A stretch of 64,000 nucleotides of DNA from an uncultured Acidobacteriota bacterium (GCA_963713825.1 CAVQNG010000003.1:1280001-1344000); one strand, 5' to 3'; positions 17,667 to 51,911 are shown, counted from the stretch's first letter. Notes: generated by a model not told the origin, from the sequence alone. Numbers and translations are program-made.

Positions 17667-19475
17667 ATGCGAGTGGGTAACCTGAGACCCGGGCTTGGGG
17701 TGTCGTTGGCGCGCTTTTTCCTATGCGTTTGCGGCACTCCTCTGCTTGCGGGAAACGACGTGGTGCCAGGGGCTTTGAGGGTCGACTCTACCTATGAGCA
17801 TATTGGAGCTCTTTGGTCGATCGAGGGCGACAACGATCTCGACAGTTGGCTTCAGATGGAATTCCGCCTTGAGGGAGAAGCGCACTGGAGCCCTGCGGCG
17901 CCAGCCATGCGGGCTCATCCCGCACTGGTAGTTGATGGTTCACCCCTGGGCCTCAACTTTTGGGCCGCCAGCGCTCTTTTTCTCGAACCTGGCAAGGCCT
18001 ACGAACTTCGCCTGACCATGAGTGACCCGGATGGCGGTGCCGAGACGAAGACCGTGTCCGCTGCTACCCGGAAACTCCCACTGGGAACTTTCTCCGGGCG
18101 CCATCTCTACGTCGTCCCTGGATCAAGTGGTGGAGATGGGAGTCCGGCGGCCCCGTTTCAGGGTCTCCAATCGGCTGCTAGTAATGCCGTAGCAGGCGAT
18201 GTCTTTCACATTTCACCTGGCACCTACGAGCCGTTTCAGCTTCTGAGTAGTGGCACTCCCCTGGCACCAATCGTGTTTTCGGGCCCGGGAAGCGGACTTG
18301 CGATTGTCGATGGCAAGGCAACCGACCGGGGGATCATCACGCTCGGGGAATGGAACCAAACGATCAGTCACGTCGTGATCGAGGGCCTCACTCTCGACAA
18401 CGGTCGGTGGGGGATCGATGCGCAGCACAGCCACGATCTTGTGATCCGTCACAACCGGATTCGAGATGTCGACTATGGCGTCGTCAATCGACGGGGAGAC
18501 GGTCTTGAGGGCAATCAGACTATCTGCGACAACGTGATCGAGGGGCGAGTATCGTGGCCTGGAGTGGGTATTCCCTCGGAGCGAGGGATCGATCTCCGGG
18601 GTCACGGAAACGTGGTTTGTCACAACACGGTGCGCTATTTCGGAGACTGTCTCTCCCTACAGCCTTCGACGGGGCCTTCCTATGGAAACGATGTCTTCGG
18701 CAACGATGCCGCATTCTGTGTCGATGACGGCATCGAGATCGACTACAACCAGGCCAATGTCCGAGTTTGGCGAAATCGAGTGACGAACGCCCGCATGGGA
18801 GTCAGCGTCCAACCCATCCGTGGCGGGCCGGCCTATATCTTTCGCAATGAACTCTTCAATCTCGAAAGCGTTCCCATAAAGATGCATAACGACACTACTG
18901 GCTTCTTCGTCATCCACAATTCCGGTGCAAAAAATGGCGATGGGCATGGCGACAATGGCGCTATGTGGCGCAATGCGGTCTTTCGAAACAACCTCTTTCT
19001 CGGAACCCGCTTTGCGTTCGAATTCACGACCGTCGCCGACGAAGGCTTCAGAGACTTAGACTACAACGGTTGGGGCACTACGCGAGCCTTAGGCTCACCC
19101 AGTGACCCCCACTTCAAGTGGAACAATGTGCGCTACAGCAGGCTTCCAGATCTTCAAGCGATTGGAGTAGAGCTCCACGGAGTCGTGGCAACTTTCGATG
19201 ATCTTGTGGATGCATCGTTGCCAGTCACCTGGGACACTCCGGTGATCCCCGGCAGCCGCGATCTCCGTCTCTCGCCAGGAACCCCAGAAGTGGACGCCGG
19301 TGAGGAGATCGATAACCTGAATGACGCCTTCGCTCTTCAAGGCCTTCCTGACCTGGGAGCCTTCGAACTCGGCCAGCCGTTGCCGAACTACGGTCCACGC
19401 CCATGGCCTAGGTTGCTGTTTGCGGATGGGTTTGAAAGCGGCAGCACCTCGGGTTGGTCGACTTCGACTCCGTGA
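17667..19475 (+). CDS. Secreted right-handed parallel beta-helix repeat protein with C-terminal FADGFESG tail
   Basis: Signal peptide; Asn-ladder PbH1 repeats; DLRLSPGTPEVDAG..PDLGAFE; ends LFADGFESGSTSGWSTSTP. Confidence 0.8.
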   Translation: MRVGNLRPGLGVSLARFFLCVCGTPLLAGNDVVPGALRVDSTYEHIGALWSIEGDNDLDSWLQMEFRLEGEAHWSPAAPAMRAHPALVVDGSPLGLNFWAASALFLEPGKAYELRLTMSDPDGGAETKTVSAATRKLPLGTFSGRHLYVVPGSSGGDGSPAAPFQGLQSAASNAVAGDVFHISPGTYEPFQLLSSGTPLAPIVFSGPGSGLAIVDGKATDRGIITLGEWNQTISHVVIEGLTLDNGRWGIDAQHSHDLVIRHNRIRDVDYGVVNRRGDGLEGNQTICDNVIEGRVSWPGVGIPSERGIDLRGHGNVVCHNTVRYFGDCLSLQPSTGPSYGNDVFGNDAAFCVDDGIEIDYNQANVRVWRNRVTNARMGVSVQPIRGGPAYIFRNELFNLESVPIKMHNDTTGFFVIHNSGAKNGDGHGDNGAMWRNAVFRNNLFLGTRFAFEFTTVADEGFRDLDYNGWGTTRALGSPSDPHFKWNNVRYSRLPDLQAIGVELHGVVATFDDLVDASLPVTWDTPVIPGSRDLRLSPGTPEVDAGEEIDNLNDAFALQGLPDLGAFELGQPLPNYGPRPWPRLLFADGFESGSTSGWSTSTP

Positions 19476-19487
19476 GGTGCAGCGACC

Positions 19488-21281
19488 ATGGATAGACCTC
19501 TGAGCGATCTTCGAAAAAACGGCTGGCACCTCTGTGGGGGCGTGGGCTTCGTGGTGGCGCTGATGCTCTCGGCGGTGCCCGGGCGAGGTGAGCTGCCCGC
19601 ATGCGGGCTCGGCAGCAGTGCGGGCCCGGTGCAGGAACCTGTGTTTGTCCGCAACCTCACGGGCCAGACGAGTTGGTATGCGTCACCCGTCGTCCGCGAC
19701 CTGGATGGGGACGGCTCCAATGAGCTCATCGCTGCCTACTACGACACCTACGTCTTCTCGAGCTCGGGGATCCTGCTCGACCGCGCGGAGGTAGGTAGTG
19801 GCAGGGTCTATTCGCCCCACGTCGTGATCGATCTGGACTTCGACGGCATCATCGAAGTCGTTGTTGGCCGAGGACATGAAGTGATCGCCCTGGAATGGGA
19901 TGGCACCCAACTCCAACTCAAACAGGGATGGCCGGCCGATACGACAACGGGTGGCAACTCACCTGAGGTCAGAGGCCTCGCAGCGGCAGACCTGGATGGA
20001 GATGGCATGGTCGAGGTCGTGGCGACAACTACCCAAACGGTTCCGACCTCTCAAGGCGGCGCCCAGGTCTTTGTCTTCAGCCCGGATGGCACGGTGTACC
20101 AGCCTGCCAGCGGTCACGACCCGGCCTGGCCCCGCTATAACGACCTGGCCGGGCCCGGCAACGATGCCGACCGCAACGGCCAGGGTCACAGTGGCTTTGG
20201 CTGCTACGGCCTCAACCCAGGCATCGGAGACATCGACGACGACAGACAACTGGAGATTCTGGTCACTTACGACAACCACCACATCCAGGCGTTCAATCTT
20301 GATGGAGTCGCTATCGATGCCTCGGACTACTACACGAATCGCGACCCCAACTACGCTGGCAATCGGCTCACCTGGGGTCAGTTCATCCGCTGGGCCGATC
20401 CGCAGGTGGAACACGATCACTATCATCTCCACACGGGCCAGTGGCCCCATCCTGACTGGGCAGAATGGTTGCAGTGGACAGCCTCGCCGCCCTCGGTTGC
20501 CGACCTCGATGGTGACGGGAAGAACGAGGTCATCGGTGTTCCCAACATCGAGATGCACGTGCCATACGTCACTCAGGCCTATGGAGTCATGGTTCTGGAG
20601 GGCTCATACGGTGATGGCAGTCGCTCAGCCCGGCGCAAGGCAGGCTGGGAGCAGCTACCACGCGGCGATGCCCCGATCGATGTCGATGGTTGGTATCCCC
20701 CCAATGGCGTTCCCGCTCCGACAGTTGTCAGTATCAGCGGTGACTCGCGGCCCGAGGTCGTCGTCTCGCTGAACGACGGCTACCTGTACGCCTTCTCCCC
20801 TTCGGGCCAGCGCCTGTGGCGAACCAACTATCGCCACGGCAAGTCGATCCTCTTCAGCTCTGAAGCGACCGTGGCCGATTTGAATCAGGACGGGTCGCCT
20901 GAGATTCTCATTGCCACCTATGGCGAGCCGGATGTCCACGATTCGGGCAATCTCATGATCCTTGCCGCCGATGGCTCCGTGTTGCACGACATTCCACTGC
21001 CGAACCCGGGCCACAACGGCAACGGCAACGGCGCCCCGGCAGCCCCGGCCGTCGGAGACCTGGATGGAGATGGCCAGTTGGAGGTTTTCGTCCAGACCTT
21101 CGACCACGGGCTGGATCAGTTCACGGTCCCTGGATCTGCAACGAACTGTCTCCTTTGGGAAACGGCTCGAGGCGGCCCGCTCAGGATGGGTCAGCAGAAC
21201 GGTCCATGGATGCTGGGCAGGGTGTTCGCCGATGGCTTCGAAACGGGTGGCACCTCTGCGTGGTCGTCGGCAGTTCCATGA
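19488..21281 (+). CDS. Secreted FG-GAP/VCBS-repeat protein with C-terminal FADGFETG tail
   Basis: Multiple DLDGDG..E repeats; signal peptide; ends VFADGFETGGTSAWSSAVP. Confidence 0.85.
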   Translation: MDRPLSDLRKNGWHLCGGVGFVVALMLSAVPGRGELPACGLGSSAGPVQEPVFVRNLTGQTSWYASPVVRDLDGDGSNELIAAYYDTYVFSSSGILLDRAEVGSGRVYSPHVVIDLDFDGIIEVVVGRGHEVIALEWDGTQLQLKQGWPADTTTGGNSPEVRGLAAADLDGDGMVEVVATTTQTVPTSQGGAQVFVFSPDGTVYQPASGHDPAWPRYNDLAGPGNDADRNGQGHSGFGCYGLNPGIGDIDDDRQLEILVTYDNHHIQAFNLDGVAIDASDYYTNRDPNYAGNRLTWGQFIRWADPQVEHDHYHLHTGQWPHPDWAEWLQWTASPPSVADLDGDGKNEVIGVPNIEMHVPYVTQAYGVMVLEGSYGDGSRSARRKAGWEQLPRGDAPIDVDGWYPPNGVPAPTVVSISGDSRPEVVVSLNDGYLYAFSPSGQRLWRTNYRHGKSILFSSEATVADLNQDGSPEILIATYGEPDVHDSGNLMILAADGSVLHDIPLPNPGHNGNGNGAPAAPAVGDLDGDGQLEVFVQTFDHGLDQFTVPGSATNCLLWETARGGPLRMGQQNGPWMLGRVFADGFETGGTSAWSSAVP

Positions 21282-21303
21282 GGCGAGTGCTACGATCCTG
21301 CGA

Positions 21304-23955
21304 GTGAGTATCGAGGCCCCCGGCGACCGACCCCACGGTGCCGGATTCCGACTTGCGGCCCTGGCCGCGATTCTCGTCATTCCCGCCTGGATCCTGCGGT
21401 TTCTGGCCTTGCGAGAGCTCGGCCTGGGCCAAGGTCCCACCCTTTTTCGGGGTTTCGCGGCCGATCTGGCAGTGGCCCTTTGTCTCCTGGTTGCAGTCTT
21501 GGTGGCAGCTGGGTGGCGACGCTGGGCGGCCGTCGCCGTCGCCGCGTTCTGGGTGCTGCTCCAGTATGCCAACTATGAGCACGTCCTGGCCCTCGACGCG
21601 CCACTGAGCTTCACGTACGCGGGCTACCTGCTGGATCGGACATTCCTGTTGGGATCCGGCGTGGCTCTGTCCCATCCCATCCTCCTGTTGTTCCTGCTCG
21701 TAGCTGTTGGAGTCTCCATCTGGCAGATTCTGAAGCGGCCATTCCGCGGGCGAGCCATCGCAGCGGCGATCTTCCTAGCCTTGGCAGCCTGCGCGGCCCT
21801 CTGGATGTGGCCTGCCAACCCTCGGTCGTTGGCCTGGAAGCGCAGTCATTTTCTGATCGATGAGATCCGGCGGCACTCGCCGGTTGGAGAGGCGAGCTCG
21901 CCCGCCCCTGAACCGAGTCGCGCGATCACCGAGGAGTTGGCGCGACTCTGGAGCGTTGATCTGTCTGGCGAACCGTGGATGGGAGTAGGGCAGGTCGAAA
22001 AGAACATCCTGGTAGTCGTGCTAGAGGGAGTCTCGGGGGCCTATCTACCTATGCTCGCCGAGTTGTCCGGTGTCGAGTCCTCGATCAAAATGCCGCGCCT
22101 CGACCAGGTGGCTCGGAGCCATTCAACGGCCACCCGGTTTGTCGGGCAGCAGCGCCAGACGAATCGGGGTTTGTATGCTTTGCTCTGCGGTCGGTCGCCA
22201 AGGCTGGGCTCGTCCGCCCCGCGGCTCAACGATTACGCAGTCGGCCCCTCGGCCCCTTGCCTGCCTGAGGTCTTGGCCGGCGAGGGGTATCACACGGTCT
22301 TCCTGCAGGCGAGCCCCTTGTCCTTCATGATGAAGGGGCAGGCCATGCCCCGACTCGGGTTCGAGACCGTGATCGGAGAGCGAGGAGACGAGCCCGCGAA
22401 CCTCAGGAGCAAGTGGGGCATCGACGATCGCGCCTTCCTGGAGTTGAGCCTCGAGCAGATTCGACAGCTCGAAGCGGACGGCAAGCCGTGGTTCCTGACG
22501 TTGCTGACCGTCGGCACGCATCACCCGTATACCGTGCCTGAACTGGCAGAGAACCCTGGCGAAGACGGGTTGCAAAGGGCGATCGCCTATCTGGATGAGG
22601 CGGTCGGGGAGTTCATCGACCAGCTGGAGAACGAGGGAGTCCTCGACAACACTCTGGTCGTGCTGACCAGTGACGAGTCGGCAGGCTTGCCTCACAACAC
22701 GGACGACTTCGTTCGGACTCTCAGCCAGAACTGGAGTCTGGCGATTCTGATGCCACCAGGCGAAGGCCCACGACTTCTCGAAGAGCCTTTCCTCCAGAGC
22801 GATCTAGCCGTGAGTCTTCTGGACTACCTGGGAGTTGCCGACCAAGACAGCCTCTTTACCGGCCGCAGTCTGTTTCGCAGCTATCGAGACGATCGCCCGT
22901 TGTTTTTCGCCAACACACACCAGGGGCGGGTCTATGGGTTCTTTCCCCCCGACCGGCTTGTAGCGTGTGGCGAAGGCCCGGCTGAGTGTGAAACCTTCGA
23001 GCTATCCCCTGACCGGCTGTTCTCGGGCAGCGTGGGATCGGGTCGGGAGGCGCAGCGCGAGACGGAGATGCTGCAAGCCGCGACGCGACTCTCGCTCCAG
23101 GATCAGGCCGCTGATTCCGGCGTCCGGACCTATGAACTGGTCGATGCTCTCGAGGTGCCAGTGATGGCCCGGCATCGCAAGATCTTCGATGGGCAATACC
23201 TCGATGTACCCGACTCCATGGTGGTCGAGGTGGAGATCGAAGGCGAAATAGTTGGCGAGCAGGGTTGGTTGCACTTGCGCCATGACCTGGTGAGCCGCGA
23301 AGACAAGCATTTCCTGGCCCGGCTGCCGGTCTTGGGTCCTGGGGACAGATTTCGCCTTCGGTACCGTCTGCATCCCAGCGGCCCTCTTTCCGGCCTGATC
23401 TGCCGCGGATCCGCGGATCTGCTCGACACCGATCGACTCGACCTACACCTCGATGTCGCCGAGTTGCGAATCCTGCCGGAGGAGGGCGAAGCCCTCGGAG
23501 TAGGAGTCGAGGTGCTCGAGGAGTCGGTGGAGAGGCGCGTCGAGCCGCAGCCTCTTCACCTTCGATCACGGCCAACCGGTCTAGTTCTTGCGCCTTGTGC
23601 CACCTTGGATGACAAGAATCGGGTCGTGGCAGAGGCCTGTCCCGCTGGGCAGGTGACCGTTGGACCGCGTTTCTACGCCCCTCTGGGCACGCAACTCGAG
23701 GTCGTGCATCGCCTGGAAGGTGTTACTGGATCCAGTCGACTCTTCAGCGCGGTGGGCTCCCAGGGTCCGCCGATGGTTCTGGCCCAGAGCCCGGTCGAGA
23801 CGCTGGAGGAGGGAGAGACCTTGGACATTGTCCTGTCGTTCGAGGTGACAGCCGTTCTCAACGAGATTGTCGTCGGCCTGGCTCTCGAAGAGGGCGTACC
23901 GGAAGACTCCTCGTTTCGGATCCTCGACACCAGCGTCACGATGATGCTTCCCTGA
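21304..23955 (+). CDS. LTA synthase family / alkaline-phosphatase-superfamily membrane phosphotransferase
   Basis: About 5 N-terminal TM helices, then NILVVVLEG, QTNRG (candidate Thr nucleophile), TVGTHHPY and TSDE. Start uncertain; in-frame GTG 21304 chosen because the ORF-track start overlaps the upstream gene. Confidence 0.75.
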   Translation: MSIEAPGDRPHGAGFRLAALAAILVIPAWILRFLALRELGLGQGPTLFRGFAADLAVALCLLVAVLVAAGWRRWAAVAVAAFWVLLQYANYEHVLALDAPLSFTYAGYLLDRTFLLGSGVALSHPILLLFLLVAVGVSIWQILKRPFRGRAIAAAIFLALAACAALWMWPANPRSLAWKRSHFLIDEIRRHSPVGEASSPAPEPSRAITEELARLWSVDLSGEPWMGVGQVEKNILVVVLEGVSGAYLPMLAELSGVESSIKMPRLDQVARSHSTATRFVGQQRQTNRGLYALLCGRSPRLGSSAPRLNDYAVGPSAPCLPEVLAGEGYHTVFLQASPLSFMMKGQAMPRLGFETVIGERGDEPANLRSKWGIDDRAFLELSLEQIRQLEADGKPWFLTLLTVGTHHPYTVPELAENPGEDGLQRAIAYLDEAVGEFIDQLENEGVLDNTLVVLTSDESAGLPHNTDDFVRTLSQNWSLAILMPPGEGPRLLEEPFLQSDLAVSLLDYLGVADQDSLFTGRSLFRSYRDDRPLFFANTHQGRVYGFFPPDRLVACGEGPAECETFELSPDRLFSGSVGSGREAQRETEMLQAATRLSLQDQAADSGVRTYELVDALEVPVMARHRKIFDGQYLDVPDSMVVEVEIEGEIVGEQGWLHLRHDLVSREDKHFLARLPVLGPGDRFRLRYRLHPSGPLSGLICRGSADLLDTDRLDLHLDVAELRILPEEGEALGVGVEVLEESVERRVEPQPLHLRSRPTGLVLAPCATLDDKNRVVAEACPAGQVTVGPRFYAPLGTQLEVVHRLEGVTGSSRLFSAVGSQGPPMVLAQSPVETLEEGETLDIVLSFEVTAVLNEIVVGLALEEGVPEDSSFRILDTSVTMMLP

Positions 23956-23984
23956 AGCATCACCGAAGACGGGGCTTTGTGGCT

Positions 23985-25757: not shown

Positions 25758-25787
25758 GCCTCGGATCTTTTCACAGTGCCTTGATGA

Positions 25788-26948: not shown

Positions 26949-27104
26949 GACCTTCCGAACATAGCGCTCGGGAGTCGACACCGCAAGGTGCCAGGTACTT
27001 TATTGGCCGAGGAGGGTTGGCCGGACGCTCTCACGCCAGTCGAGCGGGGAATCCTGGCTGCAGGCATGGGACAATAGGCCGTCGCACCATCGAAGGAGGT
27101 TCGA

Positions 27105-27812: not shown

Positions 27813-27823
27813 GAGCCAAGACG

Positions 27824-28912: not shown

Positions 28913-28949
28913 TTTCGAACTCGCCTAGAACACGACCACGGACGGTGCC

Positions 28950-29630
28950 TCATGGCACCACCAGCGACCAGGCGCTCAGATCACCCGACTCGAAACCATC
29001 GGTGAAGATCGCGGCCAACGTAGAGCAGTCGGAATCAGCATCGTCATAGGCTAGATCACCGTCGTTGTCGAGGCCGAGACCGTCCGGTGTCCAGTTCTCC
29101 GAGCCGTCTCCGTTGCAGGGGTCCAGGACGTTGACGTTAGTTCCACCGTAGTAGATCGGAACTGCGTCTTCCCCGAGGGGCGCGGGATCGTCGTTGTGGC
29201 AGCCGGCATCGGCGCAGAGGTGCCCGCTGTTGTCAGTGCCCACATTGGCGTTGGCGTGGTGCAACCTGAGTCCCGAGCCCCACCAGGAGTTGTCTGGCGT
29301 GCTGGGATCGGGGTCTACCCCATGGCAGCCCATGCAACTGACGCCCGCCAGTCCTGGTTCGCCACGGGATTCATTGAGTAGCGGATCGTCACCGTTGACG
29401 ATGTGGCAGGTGCCGCAGAGGTTGTTCATCATTTGTCTGCGATGCACATCGTGTTTGTCGTCGGGCCAGGTGTTGTTCGGCTTCGTCGAGGTGGAATCAC
29501 GGAAGCTCCCGTGGCAATCTGTGCAACCGGATGTCCAGCTGTTGTAGGCGCCGGCATCTTCAGGCGTTGCGAGCCACACCGAGGTTGCGAGAAATACAAG
29601 GCCGGACAGGACGAGGTTTCTACGTTGCAT
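28950..29630 (-). CDS. Secreted multiheme c-type cytochrome with C-terminal FTDGFESG tail
   Basis: Signal peptide; CTDCH, CGTCH, CMGCH and non-canonical CADAGCH; acidic DNDGD..DDADSDC segment; ends IFTDGFESGDLSAWSLVVP. GGAGG RBS before ATG 29630. Confidence 0.8.
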   Translation of the reverse strand: MQRRNLVLSGLVFLATSVWLATPEDAGAYNSWTSGCTDCHGSFRDSTSTKPNNTWPDDKHDVHRRQMMNNLCGTCHIVNGDDPLLNESRGEPGLAGVSCMGCHGVDPDPSTPDNSWWGSGLRLHHANANVGTDNSGHLCADAGCHNDDPAPLGEDAVPIYYGGTNVNVLDPCNGDGSENWTPDGLGLDNDGDLAYDDADSDCSTLAAIFTDGFESGDLSAWSLVVP

Positions 29631-29937
29631 TCTTACCTCCAGTCGATCCATGGAACTCCGCCTGCCATGCGAGGCGGAGAATCCGCCCAGCGGTGGCCCT
29701 ATCCTTCGTAACCTTGTCGAGGCCCGGGGATTTGCTCCATTCCCAGGGTGCAAGCTTGATGCCACGCGTTGATGCCTGCGAAAACACGACCTTCTGTCTC
29801 GATTTGGAGTGAACCAGGGAATAATTCCCGGATTTGGGAAGCGCTTCGAGGCTCGCAGTGATCCGAATCGACTCTTGAAGCGTAGTGTCTGCTAAGGTGC
29901 CACGGCACCCGAATTCGCGACAGGAGAGAACATCATT

Positions 29938-32298: not shown

Positions 32299-32305
32299 GT
32301 AACCG

Positions 32306-33736: not shown

Positions 33737-33751
33737 GCCCTTTGGGCCTAT

Positions 33752-35249: not shown

Positions 35250-35432
35250 GGGAGAGAACCTCGTTGAGCGGTGTTGTTCGAGGGAGCCTGCAACAGCCGA
35301 GGAGGGCGAAGGATACACCAAACCAGCTCGACACCCTTTTGGACACTGCCTGCTGGAGTCGGTATCCTGACACCAGAAGTTCCTGATCAGACGACCCGCT
35401 CGAGCTCCAAAGACACCGCATAGGGAGAAGTC

Positions 35433-37688
35433 ATGAGAATGAGACCACCAAGCCCCTTTAGGCTTTCAGCCATCACTGTGTTCGTCGTCCTGGCGCTGTT
35501 TGGAGCTCGCTCCGCTCGTACGACCGAAACCGAAGCATGGCCTCGGGAGATCGAGACCCAGAAGGGCCTCGTAGTGATGTATCAACCCCAGATCGACAGC
35601 CTCGAAGGCAACATTTTGCATGGCCGGGCAGCGGTATCGGTGACAAGGACGGGGGAATCCGAACCGATCTTCGGTGCGGTCTGGCTGGAGAGTCGAATAG
35701 CAACCGACCTGGATACTCGGGTTGTCGAGTTCGAAGAGATTCGGGTTCCCAGGGTACGTTTTCCCGATGCGACACCCGATCAGGAGCAGGCACTCATCGA
35801 TTTATTGGTTCAGGAGATGCCCACTTGGAACATCGACCTGTCTCTCGACCGGCTGAGTGCAGCGCTCGATCTCGCCGAGAGGCAGACCCTGACGGCGGAA
35901 GGCTTCGACGACTCTCCCCCGAAGATCCTGTTCAGGCAAGAGCCGACGGTCCTGGTGACCGTTGACGGCGAACCCCAGTTGAGAGAGTTGGGGGACTCAG
36001 GGGTCCAGGGTGTGATCAACAGTCCGTTCCTGATGGCTCAAGATCCCAAGGACAAAGCCTCCTACTACCTCTATGCGGGAGCCGATACCTGGTACAAGGC
36101 GCCGGCTGTCGAAGGTCCCTGGCAGTTGACCTCGAAGGTGCCACAGCAGATCCAGCAGCTCGAGCCCGAGGAGGAGGAGCTGGACTCCGAGGAGGTTGCC
36201 GAAGGCCCAAGCACCCCACCGGCCATCGTGGTGAGCACGGAGCCAGCCGAGCTTATCGTTACCGATGGCCCGATGCAGTTCAGCCCTCTGGCTGGCGGTG
36301 AGCTTCTCGTCGTGACGAACTCGGAGAGCGATCTGCTGCGCGAAGTGGCCAGCCAGGAGATTTATGTCCTCTTGTCAGGCCGCTGGTATTCGGCTCGCTC
36401 CGAGGCAGGGCCGTGGGAGTTCAGGCGCCCCGACGAGCTACCGGAGAGCTTTGCCAGAATCGACCCGGACTCGGACTACGGCTACCTGCTCGTCTGGGTT
36501 GCAGGCACCGAGATGGCGACAGAGGCCGCCCTTGATGCCGCGGTCCCGCAGACCGCAGCCATCAAGCGGGATGCGACGATCCAGGTCGACTACGATGGCG
36601 AACCAAAGTTCGAGCCCGTCGAGGAGACAGCGCTCTACTACGCGGTCAATACGGAGTCTCAAGTCCTTCGATCCGGCAGCCAGTACTTCTGTGTCCAGGA
36701 GGGTGTGTGGTACGTCGCAGGCAGCGCGCAGGGACCCTGGGCGGTAGCCACCGAGGTGCCCGAGGAGATCCGCTCCATTCCGCCTTCGAGCCCGGTGTAC
36801 AACACCAAATATGTCTACATCTACGACACGACCCCGGAAGTGGTCTACGTCGGCTACTACCCCGGGTACACTTCCAGCTACATCTACCACGGAGTTCCGG
36901 TCTACGGCACCGGTTGGTACTACCGGCCCTGGTGGGGCCCCTACCATTACTACCCGAGATACCGGACCTGGGGCTTCAACGTGCGCTACAACCCCTGGTA
37001 CGGCTGGAGCTTTGGCCTGAGCTATTCGACCGGACGCTTCACGTTCTCGATCGGCTACGGTGGACGTGGTTGGTGGGGACCTGGAGGCTATCGGGGCTAC
37101 CGCCACGGCTATCACAGGGGCTGGCACCACGGTTACCGGGCGGGGACCCGAGCCGGGTATCAGGCGGGCTACCGTTCCGCCAAGCGGGATTCAGCCCGCA
37201 ACATGTATCAACGTCAGGGGAATGCCAACAGGGTGGCCCACACTTCGGGAACCAGGCCTGGCGCGGGCACGGCACAAGCTAGATCGCCGAATGTGTCGAA
37301 CCGGGCGAACAACGTCTATACCGACAAGAACGGCAACGTCTTTCGGAAGCAGCAGGACGGTAGCTGGCAGCAACGGGACGGTGGAAACTGGAAGGCAGCC
37401 GACATGAGTGGGGCAGCTGGCTCCCGGGAGGCGGCAAACAAGCCCTCGACCGGCACTCGCCCGACCGATCGGAGCGCCCCTTCCACCGGAGCTGTGGGTA
37501 CTCAACAGCAGAAGCCGAGGACAAGTACCGGGGGCACGAAGCAGCAGAAGCCGAAGACGAGCACTGGACAGTACGGTGGCAGCAGCAATCTGAATCGCGA
37601 CGCCAGTGCGCGGCAGCGAGGCAACCAGCGCGCCAGGAGCGCCCCTCGAGGTGGTGGCGGTCGCGGCGGTGGAGGCCGGCGGCGCTAG
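35433..37688 (+). CDS. Secreted hypothetical protein with Tyr/Trp/Gly-rich segment and disordered Gly/Arg-rich C-terminus
   Basis: Signal peptide; YQPQ, GPW repeats, IPPSSPVYN..YVYIY and YYPGY motifs; low-complexity tail ending GGGGRGGGGRRR. Confidence 0.7.
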   Translation: MRMRPPSPFRLSAITVFVVLALFGARSARTTETEAWPREIETQKGLVVMYQPQIDSLEGNILHGRAAVSVTRTGESEPIFGAVWLESRIATDLDTRVVEFEEIRVPRVRFPDATPDQEQALIDLLVQEMPTWNIDLSLDRLSAALDLAERQTLTAEGFDDSPPKILFRQEPTVLVTVDGEPQLRELGDSGVQGVINSPFLMAQDPKDKASYYLYAGADTWYKAPAVEGPWQLTSKVPQQIQQLEPEEEELDSEEVAEGPSTPPAIVVSTEPAELIVTDGPMQFSPLAGGELLVVTNSESDLLREVASQEIYVLLSGRWYSARSEAGPWEFRRPDELPESFARIDPDSDYGYLLVWVAGTEMATEAALDAAVPQTAAIKRDATIQVDYDGEPKFEPVEETALYYAVNTESQVLRSGSQYFCVQEGVWYVAGSAQGPWAVATEVPEEIRSIPPSSPVYNTKYVYIYDTTPEVVYVGYYPGYTSSYIYHGVPVYGTGWYYRPWWGPYHYYPRYRTWGFNVRYNPWYGWSFGLSYSTGRFTFSIGYGGRGWWGPGGYRGYRHGYHRGWHHGYRAGTRAGYQAGYRSAKRDSARNMYQRQGNANRVAHTSGTRPGAGTAQARSPNVSNRANNVYTDKNGNVFRKQQDGSWQQRDGGNWKAADMSGAAGSREAANKPSTGTRPTDRSAPSTGAVGTQQQKPRTSTGGTKQQKPKTSTGQYGGSSNLNRDASARQRGNQRARSAPRGGGGRGGGGRRR

Positions 37689-39013
37689 GGTATGGCCAAC
37701 GTCCAGCGACGGGTATCGCCGGATTCGACCCCGTCGACGAAAATGACGTCTAGGCCCTCGTAGGCGCCGATATCGAAAGCCGGACCCAAAGGTCGGGGCG
37801 TGCCCTCGAGGTCTGTCAGGACTTGCGTCAGGGTTTCGCCGTTGTCGAGGGCAGGACTACCCTCTCGAAGATGGAAATCACCGCCCGGGTCGATGAAGAG
37901 GGCTGCCGGTGAAGACCGGAGTGAGTCCTGATCGTGGCCGGTCTGTGCTCTCCATTCCGCAAGGCTCAGGACCGTGTCGCCATCATCCACGGTGAAGCGA
38001 TCCATGACCACATTGTGATCGGAGCTGAATCCGGCAAGGGAGTCAGCGGTGACGGAGACGCTGCCACGGAACGAATGGTAGTTGTAGAAGACGTTGTTGC
38101 GCACCCGGTTGTCGGTGGAGCTGTTCTTGATGTTGAGGGCCCACCGACCATCGTCGGCGACGATGACTGTGTTGTTGTAGACGTGGTTGCCTGTCGAAGC
38201 AGCGCCACCATCGATTCTGTAGAGCGAGATGCCACTCGCATGATTGTCGAAGAGCAGGTTGTTGCGGATGATGGAGCTCTGGACCCCATCCATATTGATG
38301 CCAGAGCCTCCCCCCAGACCGTTGCCGTAGATGGTGTTGTTCTCGACTACGGCTTCACTGATGATGCCGTCCCCACCCTGTGAGGCATCTCCATTCATGT
38401 GAATGCCATTGGCGCGGTTGTCCCAGATCCGGTTGCCTCGGATCGTCGGTCTGTCGCCACTATTGCTGACATAGATCCCGTGCTCGTCGCCACTGTTGGA
38501 GGTGTGATTCGACTCGATCAACAGGTCGTCGCAGAATCCGGTGAAGATGCCCCAACGTCCGTTACCGTCCAGGCGATTGCCCCGAAGAACAACGTTCTCG
38601 CATAGAACGGCGCGGATTCCAGCCCGCGTCCGGCCGTTGATGTGCAGGCCCTCGACGACAAAGTGGCTGGCACCTTCGAGGTTGATGCCGTCGGGCGTGT
38701 GCGGATTGTCGTCGTCGATCTCGACGGTCTCGCCAGGAAAGGCCTTTACAGTGATGGGCAGGGCGACCGTACCTGAAGTCGTGAAGTGAGCGCCGGCGAA
38801 ACTTCCCGCTCTCAGAAGTACAGTGTCTCCGGGCTGGATCACGCCGGCTGCGTGCTGCAAGGTCGCCCAGGGACTTCCCAGGGTTCCAGAATTGGAATCG
38901 CCTCCGGCTGGCGGGGGAGCGACGTAGTAGGTGGCGGCGCCGAGGCTCACTGGAGGCAAGGCGGCTACCAGAATTCCTGCCAGCAACGAGAACAACCCCG
39001 TAGAATGCGCCAT
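37685..39013 (-). CDS. Secreted right-handed beta-helix repeat protein with C-terminal FVDGVESG tail
   Basis: Signal peptide; YYVAP..GGDSN.GT..SPWATLQHA; PbH1 repeats; DFHLREGSPALD..DIGAYE; ends IFVDGVESGDTRRWTLAIP. Confidence 0.82.
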   Translation of the reverse strand: MAHSTGLFSLLAGILVAALPPVSLGAATYYVAPPPAGGDSNSGTLGSPWATLQHAAGVIQPGDTVLLRAGSFAGAHFTTSGTVALPITVKAFPGETVEIDDDNPHTPDGINLEGASHFVVEGLHINGRTRAGIRAVLCENVVLRGNRLDGNGRWGIFTGFCDDLLIESNHTSNSGDEHGIYVSNSGDRPTIRGNRIWDNRANGIHMNGDASQGGDGIISEAVVENNTIYGNGLGGGSGINMDGVQSSIIRNNLLFDNHASGISLYRIDGGAASTGNHVYNNTVIVADDGRWALNIKNSSTDNRVRNNVFYNYHSFRGSVSVTADSLAGFSSDHNVVMDRFTVDDGDTVLSLAEWRAQTGHDQDSLRSSPAALFIDPGGDFHLREGSPALDNGETLTQVLTDLEGTPRPLGPAFDIGAYEGLDVIFVDGVESGDTRRWTLAIP

Positions 39014-39178
39014 TTCCGGTCCCCAGCGATGCCTCTTCATCGTACTGTGGGAGAGTCGAAGCGGCAGCGGAGCAAGACACAGAGACGGATGCGCAGAGCT
39101 GGCTCCGAAAGTGGGGCAAGGTAGGCTATGCCATTCAGATCCGATCACAAGGCCGCTCGAGGCCACCAGGAGGAATCA

Positions 39179-39808: not shown

Positions 39809-39863
39809 GTCCTGACTCTTCGCCCCAGATGGGTCACACAGATCTTCTGAACCTGGGCGGGAC

Positions 39864-40955: not shown

Positions 40956-40965
40956 GGTGACGAGC

Positions 40966-42489: not shown

Positions 42490-42603
42490 GTCGGGAGTCT
42501 CCTTCTCCGGTGCCTATCGAGCGCGAATATATCCGATCCTCGAAGGAGCGAGGGCGATCGCCATACCTGTCGTTGGTCAGATCCTCCAGTAGAATCCAGC
42601 CTC

Positions 42604-44361: not shown

Positions 44362-45287
44362 GCAGCTCGATCGTTGGCCAGGGCGGGGATTGCCGTCAAC
44401 ACCTGCCGAGCCGCCGGAACCGAGAGGCTGTTACCGACCAGGCGCCAGGCGACCGACGTCGGAAGATCCGGCGGCAGTAGGAAGTCGGCAGGAAATCCCA
44501 AGAGCCGAAGTATCTCCTGTGGTGAGAAGCGACGTAGCCCGGACGGTGTCTCGAGGTAGGAGCCGCTGCGGACCGGCGAACGCCCATAGGCCGAGGTGAA
44601 GCAGGTAGCGACCGCTGCGGAATCCTTGGCGTTCACGATGCTGATTGCGTGACCGTACCTGTCGATCAGTGCCTCATCGACCCAGAGATCGGCTGGGGGC
44701 TCGAGGTCGAGATACGCTTCGAGCGGTCGAGGCTCCCGCGGCATTTGCGACATGGGTCCCAACGGCTCGCGTCCCGCCACGAGGAAGAGGCGCCGCCTCC
44801 GATTGGGAACTCCGAGCTCCGTTGGGCATAGCACAACCTCCTGGACCGCATAGCCGAGATCATCCAGAGCCGAACGCAGCACGGAGTGAGTCTGAGAACC
44901 CCTGAACCCCGGGACGTTCTCGAGTGCCAGGTAGGAGGGTGGAGTTTGGCGGAGGCAGTCGATCAATCGGAGGAAGCTCCGCGTTCTGGGGTCCTCGGTG
45001 TCTCGCTGTAGCCCGCGGACGGTAAACGGCTGACAGGGTGGCGATAGCCACCACAAGTCGGCATCGCGCCGTTGAAGGTCGTCGGCTGATACGAACTCGA
45101 GATTGACCGCCACTGTCGTGTCCGGGAAGTTCGACCGATAGACTTCGAGGCCCGCATCGTTGATGTCCATGGCTGCAACGACTTCGGTACCGCGGGGCAG
45201 GGCAGCGCAGCAACCCCCGATTCCACAGTAGAGCTCCAAGACTCGAAATGGTGGCTTGGCCCCGGTATCCAGATCAGGACTATCCAT
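44349..45287 (-). CDS. C5-cytosine methyltransferase, Dnmt2-like (probable tRNA C38 methyltransferase)
   Basis: LELYCGIGG (motif I), SPPCQPF (IV), ENV (VI), PNRRRR (VIII), CFTSAYG (Dnmt2 CFT signature), RRFSPQEI and GNSL. Confidence 0.82.
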   Translation of the reverse strand: MDSPDLDTGAKPPFRVLELYCGIGGCCAALPRGTEVVAAMDINDAGLEVYRSNFPDTTVAVNLEFVSADDLQRRDADLWWLSPPCQPFTVRGLQRDTEDPRTRSFLRLIDCLRQTPPSYLALENVPGFRGSQTHSVLRSALDDLGYAVQEVVLCPTELGVPNRRRRLFLVAGREPLGPMSQMPREPRPLEAYLDLEPPADLWVDEALIDRYGHAISIVNAKDSAAVATCFTSAYGRSPVRSGSYLETPSGLRRFSPQEILRLLGFPADFLLPPDLPTSVAWRLVGNSLSVPAARQVLTAIPALANDRAAYSR

Positions 45288-45327
45288 CGCTCGACTCTGT
45301 GGCTTGGGAGATCGAGTGGGCACTCCG

Positions 45328-46290
45328 CTACTCCTGAATGCCTGCCACCCCTTGCACCCACGATGCTGTGGTCGGTTCACCTTGAAACAGGGAGCGGTCG
45401 ACATCGCGGGTGATCGCCCAGCGATGCAACCAGGTAAGGCCGCCAGGTCCGGTATAGGTGTCCTCAGAGGAGTACGCGGGGTCCTTGAGAGCCTCGTCCA
45501 GATCGATGAATCGATAGCCACGTTGTCGCAGCGACACCACGAGCTCACCGAGATGATGGGCGTTGAGAGCGTTGGCGTGCAGCAGCAAGACCTGTGGAAT
45601 CTCGCGATCGAACAGCTCCTTGCTTTGGCCCTCGTAGTACCTGACCAGCCGCATCATGTAGTCGATGTACTCCCGAGCCAGGCGGGTCTGGAGCTCTTGA
45701 TCCCGGCGGTCGAGTGCCTCGTCATAGGCGCGGGCGAAGATCCACTCTGAGTTGTCGATAGTGATCGGTGCCACCCGGTAGCCTCGTTGAGCGAGGAAGT
45801 CTTCGACAGCCAACTTCGTTTCGAGGTCTAGCCCTGTGTGGAGGAACGGATGACGAAAATATCGTAACGCGCTGCCTCGCGCTGCTAGGAGCTCACCCGA
45901 TATCTGCTCACCGCGAACCAGGTCCTGCTTGAACTCATCGAGGACTACCCGGTGCAGGTCTGGATGAGAGAAGGTGTGATTTCCCAACTCCAGGCCTGCG
46001 TCCAGCCAAAGCTCCAGCAATCGAACCCGTGCTGCATCCACCGTCTCGTCGACATGGAGCTTGTTCTCGTTGACAAAACCGATGGCCGGTATCCCCTGGT
46101 CGCTCATCAATCTCACGAGGTACTGGTTGATTGCGGAGATCCTCGCCTCTGGAAGGCCATGTGCGCGCTGTGCGGGGAGATCGTCGAAAGTAATGACCAT
46201 CTGCCGATCCACTACCGGCTCGCTGGCGATCACAATTGCTGAACCTGCACCCAGGACTATGAACAATAGAACTGCAGCCGTCGGTTTCAT
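45328..46290 (-). CDS. Polysaccharide deacetylase (CE4) family protein
   Basis: Signal peptide; ITFDDLP, GNHTFSH, YFRHPFL and LLLH motifs. Confidence 0.9.
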   Translation of the reverse strand: MKPTAAVLLFIVLGAGSAIVIASEPVVDRQMVITFDDLPAQRAHGLPEARISAINQYLVRLMSDQGIPAIGFVNENKLHVDETVDAARVRLLELWLDAGLELGNHTFSHPDLHRVVLDEFKQDLVRGEQISGELLAARGSALRYFRHPFLHTGLDLETKLAVEDFLAQRGYRVAPITIDNSEWIFARAYDEALDRRDQELQTRLAREYIDYMMRLVRYYEGQSKELFDREIPQVLLLHANALNAHHLGELVVSLRQRGYRFIDLDEALKDPAYSSEDTYTGPGGLTWLHRWAITRDVDRSLFQGEPTTASWVQGVAGIQE

Positions 46291-46313
46291 GGCTCGTGAG
46301 CCTAGCACTGTGA

Positions 46314-46773
46314 GGGGTTGAGGCAGCTGGGCCTTCCTTCCAGTGGATATTGAGGGCTTGGGGGATCATGAGCCCGTCACTCCTCCGGCCGACCTTCGAG
46401 GCTTGGGGGTCGAGGCGTCCGATCGAACCAGGGATCTCCCTCGTCTGCGGCCTCACCCGACCATGCCCCTCCGACGAGGGAGACCCATGGCCCGATCTGC
46501 CTCCTTCGAGAAATAGTAAGAATCAAATTTCTGTCTAGCCCCCTACGCCCCTTCTGCCTTCAATGGTGCCCGAGGTTCGTTCGGGTGGTTCGACAGGGGG
46601 CGCCGAGTCGAGCGCAGCGCAAGAGCCACGAGAGAGCACAAGAGATGGGGCGCGATGACGAGACGAGATGGAGGCCCCCCGTTGCAGTTTGAGTAGCCTC
46701 CATCGTCCCCTTGCGAACCACTCGGATGGGCCTCTACCCGAAGCGAATTGTCTTTTCAGGACTCAGGGCGCAA
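46314..46773 (+). repeat. Dispersed structured intergenic repeat, copy B
   Basis: Homologous to copies A and C; stems at 46421-46497 and 46585-46721. Ends approximate. Confidence 0.9.
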
Positions 46774-46829
46774 GAAGGGTGGGGGAGAGAGGCCAAGGGG
46801 GCTAGAATCCAGGAACGGAAAGGGGAATC

Positions 46830-47366
46830 ATGGATAGAACACGCAGACGTGAGCACAGATCGAGGCTCGACACGAGCAGAGCCTGGCACGCGCAGGCTGG
46901 TATTGCCGTACTGGTGATAGTCGCTCTCACAGTGACGGGTTGCACTTCGATGGGCTCTCTCGAGCCGCCGGCGGTAACGTTGGCGGGGGTCGAGCTCACC
47001 GAGGTGACCATGTTCGAAACTACGGTGCAGGTGAAGCTACGGATCTCCAACCCGAATCCCGAGCCCATGACCCTGGAGGGTGCCTCGTTCAAGCTCCGAT
47101 TGGAGGGCTACAAGATCGGGCAGGGCTTATCTTCGGAGGCCGTGACGATCGACCGCTTGGACACAGCGATACTGAACGTGAAGTTTCACGTCAACAATGC
47201 AGTTGCTCTCCTGCAGCTCAAGGAGATTCTCGAACAGGAAGCACTGGATTACGGGATACGAGCGGTCCTGTATACCCAGGGTTCATGGGGTACCAAGAAG
47301 TTGAAGGTCGATAAAGAGGGGCGTTTCGAGTTCACGAGTCCTGTTGAGCTCAATCTGGAAGAGTAG
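46830..47366 (+). CDS. LEA type 2 (WHy-domain) lipoprotein
   Basis: Lipobox VTGC; PPAVTL and LRISNPNP motifs. Confidence 0.85.
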   Translation: MDRTRRREHRSRLDTSRAWHAQAGIAVLVIVALTVTGCTSMGSLEPPAVTLAGVELTEVTMFETTVQVKLRISNPNPEPMTLEGASFKLRLEGYKIGQGLSSEAVTIDRLDTAILNVKFHVNNAVALLQLKEILEQEALDYGIRAVLYTQGSWGTKKLKVDKEGRFEFTSPVELNLEE

Positions 47367-47421
47367 CTCACTGGCTGCGCCTGCAACTCAGGGCTCCGCT
47401 CGCGGCACTCCGTCATAAGAA

Positions 47422-47448
47422 AAGGGCTCCGGCAGAACCGGAGCCCTT
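47422..47448. terminator. Probable bidirectional intrinsic terminator between convergent genes
   Basis: AAGGGCTCCGG-CAGAA-CCGGAGCCCTT 11-bp stem, with an A-run before and T-rich sequence after. Confidence 0.75.
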
Positions 47449-47475
47449 GTGGTTTTTGTGCTGTGCGTGCGGCAA

Positions 47476-49398
47476 TTACTGCACCGTTGCGCTCCATGCG
47501 GAGGTGTCGCCGCTCTCGAATCCGTCGGCGAACGGCAAACCTGTACAGAACTGCCCCCAATGGGTGGCCCAGCGCCCTCTCTCGACCGCGCCGCCGTCGC
47601 CTGTGTTTGTGGGGCTGCCCTGCGTCATGGCGTACTGATTGAACACCCAGAAGCAACCGCTCGCTGCCGGGTCGATTGCGATTCCAGACCAGTCGCCCCA
47701 GCGATTGGCATTGCCGTCGCCTAGCCGAGTTCGAACGTAGAAGGCCTCGCCTTCATGGAGTGTCCCGGAGCCCCGGGTGGTCCCCGCGGCATCGGAAACA
47801 CCGCGGAAGGTGAAGTAGGCACCTGGGTTGATGGTCGGGCTGGATGCCGCGAAGCCCACGGCGACCGAGGCGCCATCGAAGGTGATCGACGGGAAGAAAG
47901 TATGTGTACCTGCTGATATGTCCTCGCCATCGACCACGCCCTGATCCGCGGTGGTCAGATTTGCCATGTTGCTGGTGTCGATCTCGTTCCAGTAGGCGGT
48001 GGCCTCACCGTCGTTGCCTGGAAAAGCGGTACCGGTCGGGTTGATCGTCTGAGCGGTAAACAAGGAATTGTCGCGCCAAACTGCTGAGAGCGTGGAACGG
48101 TCGTTGGTTTCGACCCTGACCGTCGTGCCCTTCTGACGGGCGTTGGGCAGCTGTGGAGCGCTCGACAGGTCCTCGATGTCTCCGAGGTTCACGAAATCAT
48201 GTGTGAACGTGGCGGCGCCCAGGGGGTTGTCAACTCGAATCACTTGCAGCAGCTCGGCTTTGGTTCCGTCGCCGCCCGTGTCGAATGTCGTGCCCGAGTA
48301 TCCGACGAGATAAGTTCCGAATCCCGCAGCCGGGGTGCCGAAGACTGCCGCTGGCTGAAGTGCAGCCTGCAGATCCAGGGCCACGCCGGTAGTGCTGTAG
48401 GGCTCAAAGAGATTGACGTCGGCTGTGTCGCAGTCGTAGAAGCCACCGGTCGTACCCTTGTCGATCGTCCAGAGGCGAATCCCACCGAAGGGCAGGGCAG
48501 GGTCTTCGGAGGCGAACTCGAACAAGCTTGCGGTGAGGTAGACAGCTTCTTCGTCGACCACCAGGCCGGGGTAGTCGGCCCACGTGAATACGCCGCCACC
48601 GACATCGGTCTTGGCCTCGATCTCCGCACTGCACCAGGTCCCATTTGGATTCCCATCGTCAGAGACTGCGACAAAGAGGCTCGACTCGTCGGTGGGAGTC
48701 CCATCGAGAATCTGATCCGAGACGCTGAGAATGACCACCACGAAACGATCTTCATACGGGTCGTACGTCACCTTCGGGTCGTAGGTGAAGGCGAGGGGGG
48801 TGAGGCCGAGGTTGGTCAAGAAGCCGTCCAGATCGCCTTGAGAATCGAGAGTCCCATCCTTCTGCCGGATCTCGATGATCTCGTTGATGATGTCGACGAC
48901 ATGATTCTGGCCGACGGCGCCGATCGGATCCGGCGGAATCCGGCCCTCGCCATTGACGATCGGGTTGTCGTCGAAATCGGGACCCTCGAAGGAAGTGAAT
49001 AGGGTTGGAGCATTGGGCAGCGGGGCTCGCGACCCTTCGCTGCTTGACTCGACTGAAGCCTCCGAGCGCTCGGTCGGTGCCGTGCGTGGCTCGCTGCGCC
49101 CCGGGGAATCAATGACCTGAATGAAGCTCAGCAAGTCGGGCTGTGAGACTCGATACTGCGCCCCGGGTTCACGAACGTCGGCCTGTACCGGGACGCCCTC
49201 CACCGAGCCGATGAAAGCACGAGGAGCACCGGAGGCTCTGAGAGGAAGACGGGCTGGTCTCGTGGTATGTGAACTTTCGATACCTGGCTGCGGGAAATCG
49301 GTTTCGTGGCCCGAAAGGACGAGACCCAACCCGACAGCCAATGCGACAGAGAATAGTGCCAGGACCAATACAGTCTTGTGTGATTTGAGAAATTTCAT
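47476..49398 (-). CDS. Secreted hypothetical beta-rich protein with C-terminal FADGFESG tail
   Basis: N-terminal hydrophobic signal; PPDPIGAVG..HVV, DPKV.YD, WADYPGL and RWGDWSG...DP motifs; ends PFADGFESGDTSAWSATVQ. Confidence 0.75.
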   Translation of the reverse strand: MKFLKSHKTVLVLALFSVALAVGLGLVLSGHETDFPQPGIESSHTTRPARLPLRASGAPRAFIGSVEGVPVQADVREPGAQYRVSQPDLLSFIQVIDSPGRSEPRTAPTERSEASVESSSEGSRAPLPNAPTLFTSFEGPDFDDNPIVNGEGRIPPDPIGAVGQNHVVDIINEIIEIRQKDGTLDSQGDLDGFLTNLGLTPLAFTYDPKVTYDPYEDRFVVVILSVSDQILDGTPTDESSLFVAVSDDGNPNGTWCSAEIEAKTDVGGGVFTWADYPGLVVDEEAVYLTASLFEFASEDPALPFGGIRLWTIDKGTTGGFYDCDTADVNLFEPYSTTGVALDLQAALQPAAVFGTPAAGFGTYLVGYSGTTFDTGGDGTKAELLQVIRVDNPLGAATFTHDFVNLGDIEDLSSAPQLPNARQKGTTVRVETNDRSTLSAVWRDNSLFTAQTINPTGTAFPGNDGEATAYWNEIDTSNMANLTTADQGVVDGEDISAGTHTFFPSITFDGASVAVGFAASSPTINPGAYFTFRGVSDAAGTTRGSGTLHEGEAFYVRTRLGDGNANRWGDWSGIAIDPAASGCFWVFNQYAMTQGSPTNTGDGGAVERGRWATHWGQFCTGLPFADGFESGDTSAWSATVQ

Positions 49399-50887: not shown

Positions 50888-50903
50888 TTCTTCAGGTCGG
50901 GTG

Positions 50904-51731: not shown

Positions 51732-51800
51732 GATCCTTCGCCCTTAAACTCAATGATCGAATCAGGGATCTGGTCTAGGGAATGAAGCGACTCGGACAAA

Positions 51801-51829: not shown

Positions 51830-51911
51830 CATGTACAAACCTGCCTTCGCAGGCATCGCTAATCCGAGCCAAACCTGGGCCGTTGATCAGCCCGCGAGGC
51901 GAGATCGTGAT

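Follow-up and report, generated by a model that had tools for sequence, protein, structure and literature searches.

A short C-terminal tag shared by unrelated exported proteins of Acidobacteriota resembles the head of a beta-jelly-roll domain

Results

Five genes in one window end in the same 18-residue tail

We analyzed a 64-kb stretch of DNA from an uncultured Acidobacteriota bacterium (GCA_963713825.1, CAVQNG010000003.1:1280001-1344000; hereafter the window, with positions counted from its first letter), in which an earlier note had pointed out five genes for exported proteins of different folds that share a C-terminal tail. A six-frame scan of the whole window with the regular expression F.[DN]G[FVILM]E[STAG]G returned exactly five matches, and in 5/5 the first Phe stands 18 residues ahead of the stop codon. 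These are the five tails of the earlier note, all recovered, two on the + strand and three on the - strand (the coordinates below include the stop codon, and A2 is a profile of a jelly-roll domain described further down):

19419..19475, + strand: tag 1, FADGFESGSTSGWSTSTP + stop; found by the six-frame expression, aligns to positions 2-19 of profile A2
21225..21281, + strand: tag 2, FADGFETGGTSAWSSAVP + stop; found by the six-frame expression
28950..29006, - strand: tag 3, FTDGFESGDLSAWSLVVP + stop; best of the five against profile A2 (E 6e-4, positions 2-17)
37685..37741, - strand: tag 4, FVDGVESGDTRRWTLAIP + stop; Val replaces the second Phe; the tag is kept through the homologue family
47476..47532, - strand: tag 5, FADGFESGDTSAWSATVQ + stop; of the five, the nearest to the consensus; final residue Gln

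As had been noted, all five tails share F, D-G, E, G and W without exception, and four of the five end in Pro; W is followed by exactly five residues in 5/5. Residue frequencies predict 6.9e-5 matches to the motif plus W in the window, against five observed, and 100 triplet-block shuffles of the window yielded no motif match, so the five tails are not a product of chance. Their DNAs agree at first and second codon positions only, both Ser codon families are used, and a search for conservation past the stop among the five tail regions found none. We therefore ruled out a DNA repeat or mobile element encoding the tail; synonymous variation without DNA likeness past the stop points to selection on the peptide.

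The proteins that carry the tails, which we call cargos 1 to 5, are encoded as follows:

17667..19475, + strand: cargo 1, exported right-handed beta-helix protein of 602 amino acids (aa) (Pfam Beta_helix 2.9e-6, NosD 4e-6; signal-peptide-like N terminus)
19488..21281, + strand: cargo 2, exported FG-GAP repeat protein of 597 aa (Pfam FG-GAP_3 6.9e-26)
28950..29765, - strand: cargo 3, small exported c-type cytochrome-like protein, open reading frame (ORF) of 271 aa with a probable start Met at 29651
37685..39166, - strand: cargo 4, exported beta-helix protein capped by a choice-of-anchor Q domain (probable start 39040 or 39013; Beta_helix 1.5e-18)
47476..49398, - strand: cargo 5, exported protein of no described family, 640 aa; seven close relatives all retain the tail

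Cargo 3 has three CxxCH motifs, read straight from the sequence, and weak profile matches (Cytochrome_C554, 0.0015; DmsE-family decaheme, 2.9e-4). Cargo 5 matched nothing in Pfam or NCBIfam, and its nearest ESM Atlas clusters are unnamed. We judged signal peptides by a simple hydropathy rule, not a trained predictor. All five N termini had been called signal-like; four of the five pass this rule, including cargo 3 when begun at Met 29651, and the fifth, cargo 4 (37685-39166), has the hydrophobic core and gains the basic n-region if a Met nine codons upstream is used, passing only from there. Exported proteins that lack the tail also occur in the window (two sortilin/BNR proteins, a second multiheme cytochrome and a GSDH-like protein), and the tail therefore marks a subset of exported proteins.

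The tag is widespread on secreted proteins, chiefly of two classes of Acidobacteriota

We searched the last 40 residues of cargo 5 against a collection of 5.8 billion proteins; the query includes the terminal residues, so this search leans to full-length tails. It returned 37 proteins from 73 candidates, 7 of them close relatives of cargo 5 and 30 unrelated. Of these, 30 have the motif Phe exactly 18 residues from the end, four others have it at 15, 17, 17 and 19 residues, and three have internal copies. We also scanned DNA for F-x-D-G-F-E-x-G-x4-W without regard to stop codons, taking one genome per species of Bacteria and Archaea, which gave at least 132 distinct matches (80 of them with flanks of 2 kb, the others with about 300 bases). 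Distances from the Phe to the stop were distributed as follows among the 132 matches listed:

exactly 18 codons: 58
13-20 codons, not 18: 30
21-60 codons: 8
more than 60 codons: 14
reading frame open to the end of the locus: 22

Copies at the terminus (13-20 codons from the stop) came from the following sources, again among the matches listed, the shares of the taxa being those of a sample and not a census:

Acidobacteriota records (mostly Thermoanaerobaculia, Holophagae and unclassified): 76/86 terminal
metagenome-assembled genomes (MAGs) labeled Deltaproteobacteria: 5/5 terminal
Planctomycetota: 1/1 terminal
unlabeled bacteria: 6/8 terminal
Chloroflexota (13), Archaea (4), Actinomycetota (4), Armatimonadota (4), Cyanobacteriota (3), Verrucomicrobiota (2), Bacteroidota (1) and other (1): 0/32 terminal

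The motif is thus mostly terminal and not internal (88/132 of the listed matches), and 76 of these 88 copies belong to Acidobacteriota MAGs; every terminal copy among those listed comes from a MAG. The tag is widespread on secreted proteins, chiefly of the acidobacterial classes Thermoanaerobaculia and Holophagae, and the five tails of the window are copies of a lineage-typical C-terminal cargo tag with the consensus [ILV]-F-x-D-G-F-E-S-G-D-T-S-A-W-S-x-x-V-P-COOH. Among the listed matches, the last residue is Pro in 51 of the 58 tails of 18 residues (Gln, Asn, Arg or Gly in the others), and the residue before the first Phe (position -1) is I, L or V in 79/85 terminal copies. Two statements of the earlier note hold for the window alone: the length, fixed at 18 residues in its five tails, spans 13-20 residues in the wider sample, and W followed by five residues is there the commonest form and no rule. 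Several MAGs have at least three to four of the listed matches each, and tagged genes are often neighbors, as at 17667-21281 in the window. The 3' end of the cargo 2 gene is 72% identical in DNA to a locus of a Thermoanaerobaculia MAG (L109) with the same kind of tail; on the strength of this identity, the organism of the window probably belongs to the tag-bearing Thermoanaerobaculia/Holophagae group.

As a separate observation, 23/85 of the listed terminal copies have a Cys at -12 to -3 of the tag, mostly at -8 to -6, compared with about 12% expected, which is no more than a mild enrichment; the figure for internal copies is 5/43. This Cys may form a disulfide that closes the cargo just ahead of the tag.

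Tagged cargos are diverse, and the tag is under selection as a peptide

We then looked into the proteins to which the tag is attached. According to Pfam, the 30 unrelated tagged proteins of the tail search include S8, M14, M28, reprolysin-like, Kelch, SBBP, FG-GAP, beta-helix, WD40, sortilin and purple acid phosphatase N-domain proteins, among others. Pfam matches (E<=1e-6) were found in 28/48 tagged genome ORFs and cover about 21 families (FG-GAP, beta-helix, S8, M14, M28, C25, GH114, GSDH, BNR/sortilin, amidohydrolase, DUF11, DUF1501, Calx-beta, cadherin-like and purple acid phosphatase among them), while the other 20/48 had none. By the hydropathy rule, 26 of the 30 unrelated proteins have signal-peptide-like N termini, and three of the four misses are N-terminal fragments. 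With some 20 Pfam families on record, and with enzymes, repeat proteins of adhesin-like type and cytochromes among the Sec-exported carriers, the description of the tail as a module common to unrelated secreted folds is borne out.

Two of these families deserve a remark. Sortilin/BNR proteins, untagged in the window, are tagged elsewhere (P0040, L040, L054, L059), giving tagged and untagged members within one fold family. A MAG of Candidatus Multivoradales (L068) encodes a tagged peptidase C25 of the gingipain family (PF01364, 7.9e-66); characterized members of peptidase C25 are cargo of the T9SS, or type IX secretion system.

The family of cargo 4 comprises 4,256 proteins at E<=1e-10, of which we examined the best 120 and aligned 88. 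These homologues are 442-451 aa long, and those with a name come from Acidobacteriota, from Thermoanaerobaculia MAGs and also from Rhodanobacteraceae MAGs (best 120 of 4,256). Their C termini took these forms:

18-residue tail: 52 of the best 120
long tail, 13-22 residues, not 18: 14 of the best 120
motif plus a short extension: 3 of the best 120
...[ILV]F-x-[DN]-G-F-[ED] plus 0-3 residues only: 36 of the best 120
other or nothing: 15 of the best 120

The short forms define [ILV]F-x-[DN]-G-F-[ED] as the conserved core; the short group includes proteins labeled Rhodanobacteraceae, and 14/36 of its members have a final Pro. Over the 88 aligned homologues, the key residues of the tail are retained (F in 83/84, D in 76/85, G in 76/85, the second F in 74/84, W in 54/54), and over homologues of 60-100% identity they are kept as well as those of the catalytic domain. 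We built a tree of the 88 domains without the tail columns. The type of tail (long, short, none/other) changes 5 times on this tree, versus 25-35 times with shuffled labels, and the short form is conserved over a large clade, with 3 state changes. So few changes show that the tail is inherited together with the cargo gene; the tree shows nothing more. The tag is under selection at the level of protein sequence.

The tag of cargo 4 is a free extension in a slot used by other modules

An AlphaFold2 model of cargo 4, made with the 88-sequence alignment, has a mean predicted local distance difference test score (pLDDT) of 92.3; in the tail, the score falls below 50 for residues 426-437 and 439-442 (of 442). 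We thus ruled out for cargo 4, the one case modeled, that the tail is merely a structural strand of its own cargo domain (pLDDT below 50 against 92 overall), and in this model the tag is a free, unstructured extension of the cargo.

Just ahead of the tag, residues 431-470 of cargo 4 match the choice-of-anchor Q family (NF041518 choice_anch_Q, 7.2e-11, 42.2 bits for a cut-off of 25). A choice-of-anchor name denotes a domain followed by a C-terminal anchor of varying type, and the homologues of cargo 4 indeed carry varying C-terminal modules. We surveyed this slot by searching cargo 4 against 1.84 billion cluster representatives, fetching 149 and scanning 86 with Pfam (the shortest were chosen). 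Homologues typically match up to a ...D-x-G-A-Y-E cap and then diverge. After the cap, the 86 representatives have Por_Secre_tail (4), Dockerin_1 (4) or SLH (2), as well as CARDB, Big_5, PKD, Calx-beta, cadherin-like, fn3, Ig-like and lectin modules. This variety indicates that the tag stands in the slot for the sorting and anchoring modules of other lineages.

The motif heads a jelly-roll domain in other phyla

Copies of the motif in Chloroflexota, Actinomycetota, Armatimonadota and Archaea lead into a stretch of about 200 further residues. These motif-headed domains give weak to clear Pfam matches to Polysacc_lyase (PF14099, best 2e-9) and CBM_4_9, and the profile starts within the motif. 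Searching the PDB by sequence produced nothing useful. We modeled one such domain with AlphaFold2 from an 8-sequence alignment (mean pLDDT 80.7, good from about residue 40), and a fold search with the model retrieved polysaccharide lyases of jelly-roll fold (PL20, PL36 and PL7) in the PDB, e.g., 2zzj and 6kcv. On the 210-position profile A2, which we built from motif-headed domains, the acidobacterial tails align to positions 1-20 only. Among the 120 best homologues of the domain, the motif stands at the start of 114/114 complete domains; nine headless copies are truncated fragments. The two settings differ at position 10, which is Thr in 39/58 of the listed 18-residue tails and Phe or Leu in most domain copies. 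By these alignments, the tag is in its sequence the same in kind as the head (first ~20 positions) of a lyase/CBM-like beta-jelly-roll domain of other phyla.

Some motif-bearing proteins have features of their own. One Chloroflexia MAG contig (L012-L014) has tandem jelly-roll domains with the motif at the head of each, and its third copy is split over several short ORFs, each matching the next part of the profile, and looks frameshifted or decaying. In another protein (P0012), the motif lies 50 residues from the end and a second, partial tail follows at the terminus (...GGDTSAWSATVQ), which suggests a duplication or a frameshift in the record.

The tag differs from known C-terminal signals

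Searches with the five whole proteins (E<=1) and with their last 29 residues (E<=10) against Pfam and NCBIfam gave no family match for the tail. At the level of listings and abstracts, full-text searches with motif strings and searches on related topics brought up no paper on the tag, and none on C-terminal sorting in Thermoanaerobaculia. The view that no characterized family or function covers this tail is upheld as far as Pfam, NCBIfam and these listings go.

Among known systems, the C-terminal domain of T9SS cargo (PF18962 Por_Secre_tail/TIGR04183) is alike in being a C-terminal addition, free of a transmembrane helix, on Sec-exported hydrolases and adhesins of many folds, and it occupies the slot of the tag in cargo 4 homologues. 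It is, however, characteristic of Bacteroidota and a folded module whose profile spans about 75 positions, whereas the tag has 18 residues and is unfolded in the model; none of the five tails is a folded domain of about 70-100 residues matching the profile. PEP-CTERM/exosortase, LPXTG/sortase and GlyGly-CTERM/rhombosortase substrates likewise have short C-terminal signals on unrelated secreted proteins, often many per genome, but these signals combine a signature motif, a hydrophobic helix and a basic cluster, whereas the tag is acidic and polar, free of a helix and ends in Pro. The five tails have neither PEP nor a hydrophobic run nor a basic cluster, and match neither PF07589 nor TIGR02595; the LPXTG motif, with its hydrophobic helix and basic tail, is absent from all five, again with no family match. 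They show no GlyGly-transmembrane signal, and the rhomboid of the window (11303-12067) reaches 35 bits where the rhombosortase model TIGR03902 has a cut-off of 84. The tail had been described as free of T9SS, sortase, exosortase and rhombosortase features, and with 18 residues, no helix, no basic cluster and no profile match, it is. One motif-headed jelly-roll protein (L080) does end in PEP-CTERM.

Two further signals were considered. The outer-membrane beta-signal has alternating hydrophobic residues and a C-terminal aromatic residue; the listed 18-residue tails end in Pro (51/58) or in Gln, Asn, Arg or Gly, and the cargos are soluble folds. Type I secretion substrates have no N-terminal signal peptide and an uncleaved C-terminal signal, usually near RTX repeats; here the N termini are signal-peptide-like (4-5/5 in the window, 26/30 elsewhere), and the five cargos of the window have no RTX match.

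The likeness to the PL20/PL7-like and CBM_4_9-like jelly-roll head (PF14099, PF02018) consists of the motif [ILV]F-x-D-G-F-E-x-G-x4-W, which all five tails have, one with Val for the second Phe. They lack the full sandwich of about 200 residues: where the domain has some 190 further positions, the stop follows. Finally, dockerin-cohesin pairs and the donor-strand complementation of pili offer a purely functional analogy, with a short terminal module on many cargos that plugs into a receptor, and Dockerin_1 is found in the slot of the tag in 4/86 cargo 4 homologue representatives; unlike in those systems, the window, the 132 loci and the 120 homologues yielded no acceptor of a cohesin-like or strand-deficient kind.

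Discussion

What is new here is an undescribed short C-terminal cargo tag and its link to the head of a jelly-roll domain; C-terminal cargo tags as a kind are already known. The tag probably decides the destination of the exported proteins that bear it, and a sorting or docking function is plausible. As to the way it might act, we tentatively favor a label for addressing or docking that a protein receptor would read, in extended conformation, via strand addition. In this scheme, the cargo would first be exported by Sec and folded, after which a dedicated receptor would read the tag in extended or beta conformation. The tag would add to the receptor as an extra strand, as the same segment would in the parent domain, and the cargo would thereby be delivered to or held at the outer membrane or cell surface. 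Carboxypeptidases would be kept off the tag by its usual final Pro, which fits a tag that is retained on the mature protein. We also envisage, as an unlikely possibility, a Thermoanaerobaculia/Holophagae pathway hitherto undescribed in which a receptor at the outer membrane or on the cell surface would capture many different exported proteins, their tag supplying the first strand that a jelly-roll-type fold lacks (split-domain, donor-strand docking as a general means of addressing).

Several observations weigh against a receptor-read label. We found no receptor, protease, transporter or co-occurring gene family for the tag in the 64-kb window, where the candidates present (the rhomboid, an Omp85-family protein, PilT and an LtaS-like transferase) have nothing specific about them. 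The tail had been called an outer-membrane export or docking tag in the earlier note; with no reader, partner or co-occurring machinery found, that claim stands as a plausible proposal. A headless jelly-roll acceptor did not turn up among 3,587 ORFs (at least 60 residues; window plus 132 loci) or among 120 homologues, in a search with profile A2 that covered little acidobacterial DNA and so is no evidence of absence. The tag is not strictly terminal either. One protein (P0027) has a stand-alone motif straight after the signal peptide; a Pro-rich linker comes next, and then full domains, each with a head of its own. Another (P0020) has a stand-alone motif between its N-terminal region and a PF14099 domain. 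AlphaFold2, with the 8-sequence alignment, left the first 25 residues of the parent domain unplaced, motif included, and a structural role of the motif there therefore rests on Pfam profile boundaries and known CBM4 structures. Lastly, the length varies between 13 and 20 residues, 36 of the best 120 cargo 4 homologues have the short form and about four are tailless, which could be read as erosion of a remnant.

We weighed three other explanations. In the first, which we regard as unlikely, the tag is a transient export signal, a miniature analogue of the T9SS C-terminal domain that is read by an outer-membrane translocon and cleaved during or after transport, leaving no anchor. The T9SS has a range of cargo similar to that of the tag (S8, M14, M28 and C25 peptidases, glycosidases, FG-GAP and Ig-like proteins), Por_Secre_tail takes the same slot in 4/86 cargo 4 family representatives, and the tag is disordered and accessible in the cargo 4 model. 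We sought a T9SS-like or other translocon gene in the window, however, and saw none; the N-terminal and interdomain stand-alone copies are placed where cleavage would cut the protein, and the final Pro of 51/58 listed tails looks protective of something that persists.

A little less probable is a direct matrix anchor, that is, a miniature sticky end derived from a carbohydrate-binding-type domain that binds a nonprotein component (calcium-bridged lipopolysaccharide or exopolysaccharide) with no need of a receptor. In its favor, the invariant residues belong to the aromatic (F, F, W) and acidic (D, E, often D9) types found where sugar or calcium is bound, the parent domain resembles polysaccharide lyases and CBM_4_9, and a receptor is just what was not found. 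Against this, a specific site is hard to expect from 18 foldless residues for which AlphaFold2 gives no structure, and the binding face of jelly-roll modules is made of several strands, not of the head segment.

We give a similarly low probability to the idea that the tail is what remains of truncated C-terminal jelly-roll modules, or that it is a short cap or spacer and addresses nothing. For this idea one may cite the identity in kind with the jelly-roll head, the series of lengths in the cargo 4 family (18, 13-22, 6-9, none) and the lack of machinery. This idea is weakened by the fixed 18-residue length with a conserved final Pro (58/88 listed terminal copies, 51/58 of them ending in Pro), by conservation of the key residues on a par with the catalytic domain while synonymous sites vary, and by the occurrence in about 20 unrelated architectures with several copies per genome. 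Independent truncations would not end at the same residue, and the short form itself is stable over a large clade (3 state changes).

The docking label that we favor would have consequences beyond this locus. Earlier address labels, namely LPXTG, PEP-CTERM and the T9SS domain, each brought a dedicated sorting machine to light, and a further one would point to a new route by which proteins reach or cross the outer membrane. Such a label would also allow the surface and secreted proteome to be predicted by a simple rule at the sequence level in the tag-bearing organisms, a large and mostly uncultured branch of Acidobacteria common in soils and sediments. The link to the jelly-roll head suggests, in concrete and testable form, a way in which a peptide of 18 residues could be read, and a compact natural tag could serve surface display.

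Other genes in the window

The rhomboid protease belongs to a cluster on the - strand (11303-14364) that also encodes the 446-aa Omp85-family protein and a 265-aa protein without a family, the C terminus of which looks like a small beta-barrel. The LtaS-like protein, a membrane-bound transferase of the sulfatase superfamily (LtaS/phosphoglycerol-transferase-like; best match 1.4e-15, far below cut-off), is encoded at 21400-23955 on the + strand, directly downstream of the two adjacent tagged genes. The gene for cargo 5 adjoins an apparent peptide-modification cassette (49631-53420 and 62161-63999). This cassette comprises an uncharacterized nucleotidyltransferase (PF14907), an HprK-related kinase A (TIGR04352, 5.5e-22) and a PqqD-family chaperone that also matches HPr-rel-A (TIGR04353), and further on a TPR protein that matches "putative peptide modification system cyclase" (TIGR04510, 2.1e-58).

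The two untagged sortilin/BNR proteins, exported and of about 1,000 aa each, are encoded at 8064-11162 and 58439-61621 on the - strand. The second multiheme cytochrome (54363-55829, - strand) is ExtKL-like (3.2e-11) and untagged, with a signal-like N terminus. A protein of the Y1 (IS200-like) transposase family (PF01797, 4e-6) is encoded at 16426-17361 on the + strand, about 300 bases upstream of the first tagged gene. Finally, an exported 751-aa protein without a family (35433-37688, + strand) ends against the stop of the cargo 4 gene on the opposite strand; its C-terminal third is basic and of low complexity, rich in Gly, Tyr and Arg, and terminates in RGGGGRGGGGRRR.

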